DNA of 26,389 bases from Candidatus Heimdallarchaeota archaeon B3_Heim (GTDB taxonomy: Archaea; Asgardarchaeota; Heimdallarchaeia; Hodarchaeales; Hodarchaeaceae): the NCBI GenBank assembly GCA_003144275.1, contig NJBF01000045.1:1-26389 (forward strand), written 5' to 3'. A program made the translations under genes and the position numbers. Shown here piece by piece: positions 16,350 through 21,084 of this stretch. The stretch's first letter is position 1. Each line of letters begins with the position of its first letter. Under the pieces are notes generated by a model. That model was not told the origin of the DNA. It ran no database searches and saw only the letters and a list, made by a program, of their open reading frames with translations.

Positions 16350-16364
16350 GAATAAGTGGAAATT

Positions 16365-16832
16365 ATGACATTTAGAATCTCTGAGGATGAAAAAAAGGAT
16401 AATGACACCTTAGAAAAAATCCTCGCTTCATTAAATACTACAGCTCAAGTGAAACCTGAAATCAAAGATTACGTGGACACATTATCAAACCGTATGCTTG
16501 ACTTAACTCGTGATTATTATGCAGCGATTCTATATCTCTTTACATCTCCACTATCATTGCATCAACGGTTGATTCTTATGCAATTGGTTACACTCTACCC
16601 AAAAGGAAGTTCAGGAATAGAATTAGCAAGAAGTTTAGGAATATCAGAGAAAAGTAAATCAATATATAGAGATTTAAAGTATTTACGAACTCAACATTTA
16701 ATTTCCACAGAAGACATTCATCCACGATTCAAATTAGTTTATGCTAATTCTGAAAATCGCTTTATGAATCGACTAATCGAACTAGTTCAGATACATGGAC
16801 GTGAATTGAAAAATATTATTCAAGAAACATAA
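16365..16832 (+). CDS. Winged-helix DNA-binding protein (C-terminal wHTH, ArsR/MarR-like)
   Basis: QRLILMQLVTLYPKGSSGIELARSLGISEKSKSIYRDLKYLRTQHLI followed by a wing (FKLVYAN). ATG at 16365; alternative GTG at 16356. Confidence 0.75.
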   Translation: MTFRISEDEKKDNDTLEKILASLNTTAQVKPEIKDYVDTLSNRMLDLTRDYYAAILYLFTSPLSLHQRLILMQLVTLYPKGSSGIELARSLGISEKSKSIYRDLKYLRTQHLISTEDIHPRFKLVYANSENRFMNRLIELVQIHGRELKNIIQET

Positions 16833-16852: not shown

Positions 16853-17491
16853 ATGTTACGAGGTCCAATTACTACTATACGACTTTTTCAGATATCATAT
16901 GTCATCTTGGTCTCAGTATGTATTACTGGGTCAATACTGTTCCTATCAAATAGTATTATGACCTCACCATCAACAGATATTGAGCCAGGACCACCATTAT
17001 TTGAAAATACATCTTTTGACACAGCTGTAGCGCGCATAAGTGATCCTTTATCGTTTTTCCCTAATATGTTATGGGCTTTTATTCCATTAACTATAGCAAT
17101 TTTCATAATAGCCTTCTACCTCCCTACAAGGTCAAGCCTCGGCCTATCAAAAGCGAAAATCCAAAAAAAATCACAATTAAACCGTTTTAATATTCCTGTA
17201 CGAGGATATACAATCAATCTTGACACGGGTTATATTAGAGTCACACGAAAGCTATCGTCATTGAGTGGTTTATTGCTTCGAGAGATGAATTTTACAGTTA
17301 ATCTTCCTTTGGACTACTATGATAAGAAACGTATATTTGATTTCCTTGTTGGTGAGAGAGTTAATTATACAAAAACTCATGTTCTTCTACAAAAAACCGT
17401 GAAAATTCGGAATATTCCGCTTCTTATTGTTAGGACGAAAGCAATAGTTGCAACTGTTGATACTACAATTGATCCTCCCTCTCCAAAGTAA
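16853..17491 (+). CDS. Hypothetical membrane protein (2 TM + basic C-terminal domain)
   Basis: Hydrophobic segments ISYVILVSVCITGSILFLS and MLWAFIPLTIAIFIIAFYL. Starts 20 nt after the wHTH gene. Confidence 0.75.
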   Translation: MLRGPITTIRLFQISYVILVSVCITGSILFLSNSIMTSPSTDIEPGPPLFENTSFDTAVARISDPLSFFPNMLWAFIPLTIAIFIIAFYLPTRSSLGLSKAKIQKKSQLNRFNIPVRGYTINLDTGYIRVTRKLSSLSGLLLREMNFTVNLPLDYYDKKRIFDFLVGERVNYTKTHVLLQKTVKIRNIPLLIVRTKAIVATVDTTIDPPSPK

Positions 17492-17577
17492 TTAATGTTA
17501 ATAGAATTGGATGGGAAACTTTTAACTCTTCCTGCAAGAGACACTCCATATAGTGTAAAAAGGCAGCAGATGATTAA

Positions 17578-18318
17578 TTGACACGACTTGTAGCATATTC
17601 AGTGACTTCTGACGGCCATTGGGATCCAGTGGCGTTCTCTCTTAAAGATCTTAAACCTAAAGTAGTTTTCATCCTTGTTGATGACGAAAAAAGGAAAATT
17701 TGGATCTGGATAGGAAGAGATGCCACAATCAAAACTCGCTTTATTTCATCAACTGCTGCGACTGAGATTCGTAGATTGTATGGGTTAACTTTTCGTGTAC
17801 AAACGATTGATCAAGGCGAAGAATCTCGTGAATTTTCAGAATGTATAGAATCGATCCCAAAAAAAGGTCTGGTACCAGAATTAGCCGAAGGACAAAAGGA
17901 GAAAAAAGCAACTAAAACCACTCGCTCCTCTTCCGCTGCAAAAAAAGTTACTCCAAGAATTAAAGTGGGTAAATCGACAGTAAAAAAGGCCAGTGCCACA
18001 AAAACTACCCGTAAAACTCCTGTGCGAAAAACTACACCAAGAAAAACAGCGACCAAAACCACTCGTAAACCCACTACAACAAAAACCAAAAAAACTACAC
18101 CTAAATCTAAATCGCGTAGTTCAAAAGAGGTTCTGTCTTTAAACAGTTATTTACCACAAGATACAAGCATTATCACCACCCCACCTTGTCCTGAATGTGG
18201 CGTTGGAAATTTGCTGCCTTATTCTGAAAATACTATCCAGGAAGGAAGAGAAAATTTGATACTACCCTTTGCTAAGTGGGTTTGTTCAAAATGTGAGTAC
18301 TCACCTACTCACAAATAA
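17578..18318 (+). CDS. Gelsolin-domain protein with Lys/Thr-rich linker and C-terminal Zn ribbon
   Basis: VFILVDDEKRKIWIWIGRDA...RF.S...A...R......IDQGEESREF is the gelsolin repeat signature. CPEC...CSKC forms a Zn ribbon. TTG start, with an in-frame TAA immediately upstream. Confidence 0.82.
   Translation: MTRLVAYSVTSDGHWDPVAFSLKDLKPKVVFILVDDEKRKIWIWIGRDATIKTRFISSTAATEIRRLYGLTFRVQTIDQGEESREFSECIESIPKKGLVPELAEGQKEKKATKTTRSSSAAKKVTPRIKVGKSTVKKASATKTTRKTPVRKTTPRKTATKTTRKPTTTKTKKTTPKSKSRSSKEVLSLNSYLPQDTSIITTPPCPECGVGNLLPYSENTIQEGRENLILPFAKWVCSKCEYSPTHK
17900..18125 (+). repeat. Low-complexity K/T/R/P repeat region inside the gelsolin gene
   Basis: Repeated KTTR/KTTP/KTP units. At DNA level, AAAACCACTCG occurs twice along with similar AAAACTAC units. 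Confidence 0.8.
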
Positions 18319-19061: not shown

Positions 19062-19847
19062 TTATTTACTTTGTTTAGCAATCAACGCAGCTGTTGCTCC
19101 AGCATTGATCCCATTATCAATATTAACGACAACTAGTCCAGGAGAACAGCTTTGAAGCATAGACATTAATGCAGCAACTCCTTTTCCGCCATAACCATAA
19201 CCAGTAGATGCTGGTACTCCAATTACGGGGGTTCTCACTAAACCAGATACAATTGATGGAAGAGCGCCCTCCATTCCAGCAACTACAATGATAACTCTTA
19301 CATTTTGTTTTACAAGCTCTTTCAAGGGAGCGAATAACCTATGAACTCCTGAAATTCCAACATCATGAAATGAAATGACTTCTACACCCATTATACGAGC
19401 AATAGCTTCCGCTTCTTCCGCAATTGGTATATCTGAAGATCCTGCTGTAAGTATACCTATTCGTTGAGATGGAATAGGCGGGGAATAATCTTTCTTCTTG
19501 ATGGTCACCGTGTAGGGTTCTGAATCTGATGAAACTTTTAAGTTATAAGACGTGCCGAATTCCTTTTTTAGAAGAGATAAGTGTCGTTGTAACACCCGTG
19601 AAAGTAAACACACCTGATGAGATTCCATTAAAGAAGAAACAATTTCAACAACGAGTTTGGGGCTCTTATTTTCCGTAAAAATTATTTCTGGTATCCCTCG
19701 TCTTATTTGACGACTCGTATCCATCTTTGCCCCCTCTCCAACGAATTCAAGACCGAATAGATTTATAGATGTGATAGCTTCCTCAATTTCAATTTTTCCA
19801 TCCTTTAATTTTTGTAAAATCTCCTCTAAATCATGCATTGGCATCAT
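19062..19847 (-). CDS. larB: Nickel-pincer cofactor biosynthesis carboxylase/hydrolase LarB
   Basis: R.IRRGIPEIIF.ENK, ILTAGSSDIPIAEEA, DVGISGVHRL, VAGMEGALPSIVSGL, PVIGVPASTGYG, MLQSCSPGLVVVNIDNG. The start may be one of the nearby downstream ATGs. Confidence 0.95.
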   Translation of the reverse strand: MMPMHDLEEILQKLKDGKIEIEEAITSINLFGLEFVGEGAKMDTSRQIRRGIPEIIFTENKSPKLVVEIVSSLMESHQVCLLSRVLQRHLSLLKKEFGTSYNLKVSSDSEPYTVTIKKKDYSPPIPSQRIGILTAGSSDIPIAEEAEAIARIMGVEVISFHDVGISGVHRLFAPLKELVKQNVRVIIVVAGMEGALPSIVSGLVRTPVIGVPASTGYGYGGKGVAALMSMLQSCSPGLVVVNIDNGINAGATAALIAKQSK

Positions 19848-21084
19848 TCTCTCTTTTAATATTAGAATTAATGTTTTTTCGAGTTTTTCTCAGTGATTGC
19901 TTCTTTTTAAGGGCAATTCTTTTTATATCCTCATATTCTACTTTTTCTGTAATCATCTCGTCCCCGATAAAACCACGTTTCACTTTTACACTATCATCTC
20001 CCTCTCCAATTTTGATTTTATGCATAGTAGAATTACGTGGAATAATATGCCTAAAGCTGGATAATACTCGCACTCCTAATGTTCCTAATTCACGCATAAG
20101 CAATAAGGAAACTTCGTGAACTTTTTCTGGTTTAACAATGGCTTGAAGAAGATACCCTGGTCTGTTCTTCTTCATCAGTGTATTTATCGCAATAAAATCC
20201 AAAACTAAATTTTCACGGAAGAGGATATCAAATAGGTAACCAATGGTTTCTCCATCTACATCGTCAACATTTGTCTCTAGAATCATAATTTCCTCAGAAT
20301 GCAAATGATTTTTAGTTATTCCAAGAATGATTTGTAGAAATGACTGTTTGCCTTCTTTTGGAGAATGAGTACCAAAACTTCTTCCAATCTTCTCGATTTT
20401 CATACTCGGTAAATACTGAATTGCGTTTGCTTGTAAAGAGGCTAAAATTGCGGCTCCCGTAGGTGTTAATAGTTCCTCATTCACAGGTCCCCCTTGAATT
20501 TTTAAGTTACCCATTTGAATGATTTCTGTTGTAGCAGGTGTCGGAACAGAGACCAAACCATGAGCAATCGTCCGAGTTCCTCCTCCTACAGCAATAGGTA
20601 AAAGTTGAATATGTAACTCTTCTTTTCGAATTAACTCCAAGAGATAGTAGAATCCCAGTATATCTAGAATCGTGTCGATGGTTGCTAGTTCATGGAAATG
20701 GAAGTTTCCGTTATCACTCGTAGCACCATGAATTTTTTTTTCTGCCCCAATTAAATAGTTTAATGCATTATGTGCTTTCTTTCTTGATATCTCCATCTGT
20801 AGAAACGAATGACTTAGATTTTTCAAAATCTCTACTAACTCGTGAGGTTGAAAGCGTTTCTTTGCGTTTGTGACCAGTTGTAGCCCAAAAAATCCTTCAA
20901 TTTTAACTTTCTTCCAATTTAACAGAAATTGAGGATCATAATCAACTAATTTTGATTGAAATTTGCTACAAAAGTCATTACGTTGGTCTTCGGAGCATAA
21001 ATCTAATAACGCAGCGATGAGCATATCTCCTGCCGCGCCTGAAATACTGGAATTAATAATTAGCAATGCCATCTTCAATTTCAT
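19831..21084 (-). CDS. larC: Nickel-pincer cofactor nickel insertase LarC
   Basis: SGAAGDMLIAALLDL, HFHE..TIDTILDI, AHG.VSVPTPAT, ELLTPTGAAIL, LETNVDDVDGE, MKKNRPG, LGTLGVR, EYED. Confidence 0.93.
   Translation of the reverse strand: MKLKMALLIINSSISGAAGDMLIAALLDLCSEDQRNDFCSKFQSKLVDYDPQFLLNWKKVKIEGFFGLQLVTNAKKRFQPHELVEILKNLSHSFLQMEISRKKAHNALNYLIGAEKKIHGATSDNGNFHFHELATIDTILDILGFYYLLELIRKEELHIQLLPIAVGGGTRTIAHGLVSVPTPATTEIIQMGNLKIQGGPVNEELLTPTGAAILASLQANAIQYLPSMKIEKIGRSFGTHSPKEGKQSFLQIILGITKNHLHSEEIMILETNVDDVDGETIGYLFDILFRENLVLDFIAINTLMKKNRPGYLLQAIVKPEKVHEVSLLLMRELGTLGVRVLSSFRHIIPRNSTMHKIKIGEGDDSVKVKRGFIGDEMITEKVEYEDIKRIALKKKQSLRKTRKNINSNIKRENDANA

Follow-up and report, generated by a model that had tools for sequence, protein, structure and literature searches.

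What does an Asgard archaeon do with a protein that joins a gelsolin domain, of the kind that acts on actin, to a strongly basic tail and a zinc (Zn) ribbon? The question is raised by a locus of Candidatus Heimdallarchaeota archaeon B3_Heim (Hodarchaeales; assembly GCA_003144275.1), on contig NJBF01000045.1, the 26,389 nucleotides of which were analysed whole and are referred to here as the window. On its forward strand a gene at 17578..18318 codes for 246 amino acids plus a stop codon from a TTG start, and its product, which we call the gelsolin-linker-Zn protein, consists of one gelsolin domain, a disordered polybasic linker and a C-terminal ribbon with four cysteines. An earlier reading of this DNA, made from the letters alone (the original prediction), saw in it a possible adaptor between actin and nucleic acid. 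We find that the gene is real and conserved, that its sequence places it, as a member confined to one lineage, among the Asgard gelsolins of the single-domain ('1DGelX') class, and that its product is, with somewhat better than even probability, a calcium-independent, targeted regulator of actin filaments and not primarily a chromatin protein, the tail acting electrostatically and the ribbon serving for docking. To our knowledge, the only characterised Asgard gelsolins are those of Thor, Loki and one Heimdall, and none is from this Hodarchaeales family.

A single-copy gene of one clade

A homologue search over 5.8 billion proteins returned 47 homologues, 44 of them full length (206-283 amino acids) with gelsolin domain, linker and ribbon all present, so the open reading frame (ORF) is not a product of chance. 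Those that carry a name come from metagenome-assembled genomes labelled Hodarchaeales or 'Heimdallarchaeota'. When 400 Asgard species genomes were scanned with a profile of the Zn domain, exactly one copy was found in 20 of the 21 genomes of the window's own family or genus in the Genome Taxonomy Database (GTDB; Hodarchaeales), the ribbon gene was absent from both genomes of the sister family in the order and from all 31 of the next family, and the gelsolin-linker-Zn gene was found in no other of the 400. In the one genome of the family where it was not found (G075), the neighbouring winged helix-turn-helix (wHTH) gene lies at a contig edge. The distribution of the gene is thus clade-restricted and single-copy. 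The same scan also gave weak matches to an ORF that we take, from reading its sequence by eye, to be Mut7-C-like and to a 299-amino-acid multi-ribbon ORF; both were judged unrelated.

The TTG codon stands immediately 3' of an in-frame TAA, and the homologues start at the same position, with ATG (MTRLVAYQV...). A GTG at 17602, eight codons downstream, is used as the start by two database entries and was ruled out: residues 2-9 are conserved, and the predicted fold opens with a beta-strand made of residues 4-9, so the TTG is the start. An antisense ORF at 17811-18089 (92 amino acids, rich in V and F) is a mirror of the K and T codons and not a gene.

The 86-nucleotide intergenic region upstream (17492..17577, forward strand) is unusually conserved in four close relatives and, in an alignment of five relatives, nearly to the level of coding sequence. 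Its conserved blocks read GATGGGAAAnTTTTAAC ... ATATAGTGTAAAAAGGCAG ... AGATGAT, and it holds the A/T-rich motifs TTTTAAC and ATATAG; the AGATGAT resembles a Shine-Dalgarno sequence and lies 4 nucleotides 5' of the TTG, which is itself conserved in five relatives. We read TTTTAAC/ATATAG and AGATGAT as a candidate archaeal promoter and ribosome-binding site that would be the gelsolin gene's own. Among public sequencing runs, no RNA run is listed as carrying the stretch with the gelsolin gene; the DNA runs that carry it are metagenomes of marine sediment and cold seeps, each with at most 25% of the sampled words.

A gelsolin domain of the ProGel/1DGelX class

The N-terminal domain (amino acids 1-91; 17578..17850, forward strand) was defined by Pfam, by an AlphaFold2 (AF2) model, by Foldseek and by class motifs. 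Pfam gave a single match in the protein, to PF00626 over amino acids 17-86, with a score of 28.3 bits where 21 is the cut-off (E 1.6e-6) and of 30.8 bits when the genome was scanned, and the best sequence matches in the PDB were villin and the Asgard 2DGel and ProGel proteins. The model of amino acids 1-95, with a predicted local distance difference test (pLDDT) of about 80-86, has strands at 4-9, 15-18, 30-35, 40-45 and 73-78 and helices at 51-68 and 84-91; the gelsolin/cofilin fold, a central beta-sheet against one long and one short helix, is present in it. Foldseek ranked Thor ProGel (7c2f_B) first, with a template modelling (TM) score of 0.92 on the target and a root-mean-square deviation of 1.1 Å, and returned 77 PDB matches at E<=0.001; among the matches listed, 50 of 50 belong to the gelsolin family. 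The gelsolin domain named by the original prediction therefore stands in both sequence and fold.

The WxG signature that follows the second hairpin strand is present as IWIWIG, with W44 and G46 invariant in 44 sequences. In the structures of G1 and of ProGel with actin, the long helix is the actin-binding element and inserts between actin subdomains 1 and 3; here the long helix, amino acids 51-68, holds most of the invariant residues (F55, I56, S58, A61, I64, R65 and R66).

For the assignment to a class, an alignment was made of the domain, the genome's own paralogues and proteins of the Loki, Thor and Heimdall types from other genomes, and motifs and blastp scores were compared. It is 42% identical to the genome's own ProGel (E 1e-24) and 39% to its own 1DGelX (E 1e-21), while 2DGel domains match at E 4e-10 to 0.14, and it shares with the ProGel/1DGelX class a hairpin longer by two residues and, where the long helix begins, the motif V[KR][TS][RK]F[IV]SS. 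By these sequence features the domain belongs to the ProGel/1DGelX class rather than to 2DGel. In the alignment, the positions that provide the calcium (Ca) side chains of 2DGels (D of 'GD', E of 'DEK' and D of 'LD') are V, T and R here, and all the ligand side chains of the Type II site (Asp of 'GD', Glu of 'DEK') and of the Type I site (Asp at the helix end) are replaced. In the relatives the V is mostly E, the T is nearly invariant and the R is invariant, and the same substitutions are found in the ProGel/1DGelX-type domains. Since the signature residues for Ca are absent, Ca-independent action is to be expected here, as in Thor 1DGelX.

The domain is followed by a conserved segment, SIPKKGLVPE (amino acids 92-101; 17851..17880, forward strand), in which G97 and P100 are invariant. 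It may lie on actin, by analogy with the ordered first 10-20 tail residues of 2DGels (PMC9433394). Matches of the whole protein to the Pfam families HAM1_N, Saf4_Yju2, BRI3 and RR_TM4-6, and PDB matches to viral histone doublets, fell below cut-off and were set aside as low-complexity artefacts.

In the genome (3.95 Mb, 94% complete) there is a single bona fide actin, on contig C100 and with a score of 441 bits, beside five gelsolin ORFs, namely the present gene, two ProGel-like ORFs (111 and 118 amino acids), a 299-amino-acid 1DGelX-like ORF and a 411-amino-acid 2DGel. The 1DGelX-like paralogue (L011, region G000:C23:81387-81581, reverse strand) has a linker rich in K and P together with a C-terminal domain rich in beta structure, and the 2DGel (L006, G000:C48:42993-43550, forward strand) has a proline-rich tail of about 120 amino acids and a further C-terminal domain; neither of these extensions matches a characterised one.

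The linker is conserved in charge, not in sequence

The linker (amino acids 102-191; 17881..18150, forward strand) is rich in K, T, S and R and was delimited by its charge and low pLDDT. The original prediction had called it basic and disordered, correctly, and had put it at about 80 amino acids, which is too short: about 91 are present (amino acids 101-191 in this count). Among them are 22 K, 7 R, 21 T, 11 S, 5 P and 4 E but no D, for a net charge of +25 and an isoelectric point (pI) of 11.5, and the AF2 pLDDT is below 50. Whether linker and ribbon persist in orthologues had been proposed as a test, and they do: both are retained in each of the 44 full-length homologues. In 43 of these the linker is basic (net +5 to +28); it measures 48-97 amino acids, and its sequence cannot be aligned. 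Pooled over the family, its composition is K 25%, T 18%, S 12%, P 6%, A 6% and R 5%. The linker is thus disordered and conserved in its positive charge. Lysine- and proline-rich linkers after a gelsolin domain are also found in the genome's own 1DGelX paralogue on C23 (net +7) and in a 298-amino-acid protein of another Asgard family, f11 (net +8). No tandem repeats were found in the linker at the DNA level.

The label 'histone-H1-like', also given to the linker beforehand, is a loose description only. The composition is K/T/S-rich, not K/A/P, and there is no H1 globular domain (PF00538, no match at E<=10). The phosphorylation motifs of the type S/T-P-x-K/R that came with this label are not conserved: they number 0-4 per linker, are missing in most of the distant half of the family and are almost absent from the distant subclade. 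In the near subclade they are about twice as frequent as in shuffled sequences, though the members of that subclade are not independent of one another. A conserved site of phosphorylation in the family is therefore not supported.

Such a linker is rare in its own genome. By net positive charge in a 50-amino-acid window it ranks 6th of 6164 ORFs of at least 80 amino acids, and only 183 of these have a comparably charged window. The sole other tail of the K/T type is on an aIF2-gamma-like GTPase ORF (G000:C99:6677-8074, reverse strand, and G000:C21:2-316, reverse strand), as a K/T/A-rich N-terminal extension of about 100 amino acids that presumably resembles the lysine blocks of eukaryotic eIF2-beta. 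This ORF is found at two contig ends with near-identical tails, where the assembly apparently breaks within the low-complexity region.

The ribbon belongs to a family with stand-alone members

The C-terminal module (amino acids 192-246; 18151..18315, forward strand) reads TPPCPEC-G-LLPYS ... ILPFAKWVCSKC-YSP and was defined by its invariant columns, a domain model and stand-alone relatives. Its ligands C204 (18187-18189), C207 (18196-18198), C236 (18283-18285) and C239 (18292-18294), all on the forward strand, are invariant in 44 sequences, which bears out the four-cysteine ribbon of the original prediction with a spacing of 28 (CPEC-28-CSKC) in place of about 30. The ribbon has 14 invariant columns and a mean column identity of 66%, with TPPCPxC-G-LLPYS and W-CS-C-YSP invariant or nearly so, and its model (pLDDT 84) has two long beta strands.

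When 1.8 billion representative proteins were searched with a profile of the ribbon, many stand-alone relatives of 47-85 amino acids appeared, with the motif P-x-CPKC-x-x-G-x-L-x-P-L-S ... P-x-x-x-W-x-C-x-x-C. The genes beside them (a HypB/UreG-type GTPase, a 2-hydroxyacid dehydrogenase) are uninformative. Longer proteins with this Zn domain, among 8000 candidates, were gelsolin fusions only, which is weak evidence. The profile search over 1.8 billion proteins also turned up P0060 (199 amino acids, on a 2.5-kb JGI metagenome contig), in which an acidic, proline-rich linker of net -5 joins a gelsolin domain to a ribbon of the same Zn type (FLPYS ... W-C-x-x-C); the fusion of gelsolin to this type of ribbon thus also occurs outside the Hodarchaeales family, with a linker that is not basic. 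Because the module has stand-alone relatives, a pull-down could reveal its partner.

Stand-alone ribbons of about 60-75 amino acids are also found in three f11 genomes (G009, G006 and G007; L034-L036), at E 1e-11 to 1e-13 and with a lysine-rich end, KMNAKKAKKAG. The same three genomes match the Zn domain of Loki gelsolins at E 1e-5 to 1e-7, and if one ORF gives both matches, these ribbons are possibly a bridge between the two Zn families.

To known families the ribbon shows only a weak likeness. The nearest folds are of the YgiT/MqsA type and weak (Foldseek E 0.04-0.6). TIGR03830 scored 13.7 bits against a cut-off of 61.8 and gave a weak match in 11 of 22 domain sequences, TIGR03831 in 2 of 22, both models staying far under their cut-offs; the matches to the Zn domain in Pfam and NCBIfam were sub-threshold generic ribbons only (DUF7479, IS1595, YjdM, MqsA family), and those among PDB sequences were chance-level eS31/S27ae ribbons, with the Loki2DGel chain not matched.

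A proposed role as targeted actin regulator

We suggest that the protein regulates actin filaments at a particular place in the cell. Its gelsolin domain would bind actin through the invariant long helix without control by Ca, as measured for Thor 1DGelX, which binds rabbit actin with a dissociation constant (Kd) of 7.7 uM and nucleates, severs and transiently bundles filaments without Ca control (PMC7444086). The polycationic tail would add electrostatic avidity of low specificity for a polyanion, most economically the acidic surface of F-actin, leading to side-binding and from there to severing or bundling. The Zn ribbon, in turn, would be a protein-docking or localisation module that places this activity at a conserved cellular partner; a docking role is suggested by the nearest folds, YgiT/MqsA, of which the characterised example binds protein, though the scores are weak. 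On this account, the tail whose charge is conserved in 43 of 44 homologues offers a handle on how primitive single-domain gelsolins gain side-binding or localisation.

Several points weigh against this proposal. Actin binding in the family is inferred from homology and from the conservation of the long helix, and Thor ProGel binds rabbit actin very weakly (Kd 337 uM; PMC7444086), so that membership of the class is no guarantee of strong binding. A polycation binds any polyanion, and it is for parsimony that F-actin is preferred here to nucleic acid or lipid. The homologue P0037 has a net-neutral linker, and together with the acidic one of P0060 it shows that positive charge is not obligatory for the combination of gelsolin domain and Zn ribbon. 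The Zn domain of Loki gelsolins, moreover, did not co-sediment with F-actin (PMC9433394).

Gene neighbourhood and alternative readings

The order of the genes around the locus is shared by all the relatives that were compared, to as low as 40% identity: HEAT, EMG1, an NTPase, a 175-amino-acid protein, a wHTH protein on the opposite strand, a wHTH-like protein of 158 amino acids, a protein of 212 amino acids with two transmembrane segments (two-TM) and the gelsolin gene. On the 3' side and the opposite strand follow a convergent CxxCxxCC gene (PF03692; 18325-18999, reverse strand), which ends 6 nucleotides from the gelsolin stop codon, and LarB-like (AIRC) and LarC-like (Ni_insertion) genes (19062-21084, reverse strand). 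The product of the CxxCxxCC gene has an acidic/lysine low-complexity N-terminus.

The winged-helix-like protein (16356..16832, forward strand) is always encoded two genes upstream of the gelsolin gene. It is 54-97% identical within the clade and has only distant relatives elsewhere, its N-terminal 55 or so amino acids are clade-specific, Pfam gave no match at E<=0.01, and its neighbours in the Protein Atlas are MarR/IclR/AF_0843-like. The two-TM orphan (16853..17491, forward strand) always lies directly upstream of the gelsolin gene and has the same clade restriction: a single-sequence query found it in 18 of the 21 family genomes and in none of the 62 others in the class. It has two hydrophobic, predicted transmembrane segments and a C-terminal domain of about 100-115 amino acids with the motif R-K-x-S-S-L-x-G-L-L-x-R-E-F ... 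D-F ... L-P-L-Q, and by the positive-inside rule this domain is predicted to be cytosolic because a K/R-rich stretch precedes it, after the second hydrophobic segment. No Pfam family covers the protein, and a Protein Atlas look-up returned nothing reliable (scores <0.9, TM <0.4). The co-distribution of the two-TM and wHTH-like genes with the gelsolin gene suggests a module, but this is a lead only, since the whole 12-kb block is syntenic in the clade.

These neighbours bear on the alternatives to a targeted actin regulator. The adaptor of the original prediction, in which tail and/or ribbon bind DNA or RNA and tether chromatin, plasmids or ribonucleoproteins (RNPs) to filaments, perhaps jointly with the neighbouring winged-helix protein, draws on the strong and conserved charge of the tail, and on the single comparable K/T-rich tail in the genome being that of an RNA-associated translation factor, the aIF2-gamma-like ORF. 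Other top polybasic tails of the genome are on ORFs that we take, from their sequences, to be RFC-large-subunit-like and Nop56/58-like. Zn ribbons are frequently nucleic-acid binders, and all through the clade a highly conserved wHTH gene stands on the same strand, two genes upstream. However, no DNA- or RNA-binding family in Pfam or NCBIfam matches any part of the protein, the H1 globular domain and the K/A/P composition of H1 are both lacking, and motifs of the SPKK type number 0-2 per linker, with none in the distant subclade. The ribbon's weakly scoring nearest folds are those of the protein-binding MqsA/YgiT, and P0060 pairs the same Zn type with an acidic linker. Nor is the adjacency of the wHTH gene specific, given how common such genes are in archaea and that the whole 12-kb block is syntenic. 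We regard an adaptor of this kind as unlikely.

A tether between membrane and cortex is doubtful to a similar degree. In it the tail would attach to anionic archaeal lipids, or the ribbon to the two-TM protein's cytosolic domain, or both, and actin-regulating activity would be anchored at the membrane, for instance at protrusions. Unstructured polybasic segments do bind acidic lipids in MARCKS and K-Ras, and the two-TM orphan, always directly upstream on the same strand and confined to the same family, has its C-terminal domain where such docking would require it, if the predicted topology is right. Asgard actin filaments extend into membrane protrusions, including those of cultured Hodarchaeales (10.1101/2025.02.26.640444; PMC13716822). 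Against this, the tail is without an amphipathic helix, a hydrophobic anchor or a motif for lipidation, and the two-TM protein evolves much faster than the ribbon (22-31% identity where the ribbon keeps 45-50%), which is a poor fit to a conserved interface. The gelsolin gene also has its own conserved upstream region, and with the whole neighbourhood syntenic, adjacency alone is weak. A complex prediction between the two-TM cytosolic domain and the gelsolin and Zn domains scored 0.00 with a poorly folded partner and is no evidence either way. Should the tail bind DNA or membrane, the protein would be a first candidate for a link between archaeal actin and another structure of the cell.

That tail and ribbon work together with the adjacent wHTH and two-TM proteins, as a physical coupler of actin to chromatin, plasmid DNA or RNPs, seems to us quite improbable. 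Were it true, the protein would be an actin-based module for DNA positioning or segregation in the archaeal order thought closest to eukaryotes. Very unlikely, finally, is a self-associating cross-linker, in which the ribbon di- or oligomerises and gelsolin domains on basic tethers bridge filaments in the manner of villin core and headpiece: Thor 1DGelX and ProGel form bundles in TIRF (total internal reflection fluorescence) assays (PMC7444086), the modelled beta-hairpin of the ribbon may offer an edge strand for pairing, and the rise of gelsolin-linker-Zn proteins in two Asgard lineages with different Zn families suggests a generic role for a small terminal module, but the Loki Zn domain is not reported to bundle or bind F-actin (PMC9433394). 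A targeted, Ca-independent regulator of actin filaments remains the reading that we prefer; the protein is a concrete candidate through which the targeting of actin regulators could be understood in the archaea most closely related to eukaryotes, and the claim of an actin-to-DNA link is unsupported at present.

Comparison with known systems

In the literature searched we found no published description of this gelsolin-linker-Zn family. The H1 C-terminal tails and the H1-like K-rich tails of bacteria resemble its linker in being long, disordered and lysine-rich with occasional S/T-P-K/R-K/R motifs, but the linker is rich in T and S, not in A and P, comes without a winged-helix globular domain and does not conserve the motifs. 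The ribbon resembles the N-terminal domain of E. coli MqsA (PDB 3gn5/3hi2) in its CPxC-x-G-hh, long beta-hairpin, CxxC and similar spacing; the scores are weak, however, and the ribbon protein lacks the HTH domain and the toxin-antitoxin context. Among structures, the gelsolin domain is matched best by Thor ProGel (7c2f), which is of the same sequence class but is a bare domain of 88-94 amino acids without a tail.

Thor 1DGelX, the one member of the class with an extension that has been characterised, is closer in plan, in that one gelsolin domain of the ProGel/1DGelX class is followed by a non-gelsolin extension (here 145 amino acids), and its extension has been proposed as the source of actin side-binding (Akıl et al. 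2020, PNAS, PMC7444086). The extensions differ in kind: the Thor domain X is a predicted coiled coil (PMC7444086), whereas here a disordered linker of about 90 amino acids leads to a beta-hairpin Zn ribbon, with no helix.

The closest counterparts of the whole design are Loki2DGel and MKD1-2DGel, which consist of two gelsolin domains, a Link of 69-79 amino acids and, at the C-terminus, a Zn domain of the form (CxxC)2 (Akıl et al. 2022, Commun Biol, PMC9433394; PDB 7whg). The statement in the original prediction that no characterised Asgard gelsolin matches this architecture accordingly needs narrowing: these two proteins have the gelsolin-Link-Zn design, and Thor 1DGelX (PMC7444086) has a single gelsolin domain with an extension. 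The likeness extends to a gelsolin module, a linker of about 70-80 amino acids and a (CxxC)2 Zn domain, with a cysteine spacing of 28 here against about 30 in Loki, and to stand-alone copies of the Zn domain on both sides; the Loki Zn domain also occurs at the C-termini of other Loki proteins and was not consistently detected outside Loki (PMC9433394). The differences are as marked. Loki2DGel has two Ca-binding gelsolin domains where the present protein has one of a non-Ca type, and the Loki linkers are acidic, with a pI of 4.6-4.7, against a net charge of +25 here; Loki-type proteins recovered from the genomes have 349 and 333 amino acids, with a linker of net -8 in G206.

The Loki Zn domain, CPxCGN...DYPxxYGKK.CGECG, is also of another sequence family. 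It was found in 135 of 135 genomes of one family (f20) and 14 of 14 of a second (f19), at 2-10 copies, and in none of the 21 genomes of the window's family, while the Hodarchaeales-type profile misses the Zn domains of Loki 2DGels and gave only three marginal matches, to short ORFs, in the 135 f20 genomes. An hhalign comparison of the two Zn domains gave a probability of 76-83%, mostly from the Cys knuckles, and a common origin is possible on this basis. Gelsolin, linker and Zn domain in series are therefore a known design, from which the Hodarchaeales form differs by its polybasic linker, its Zn-ribbon family and its host lineage. That the design recurs in a second Asgard lineage, with another gelsolin class and another Zn family, hints at a general way in which actin regulators are targeted.

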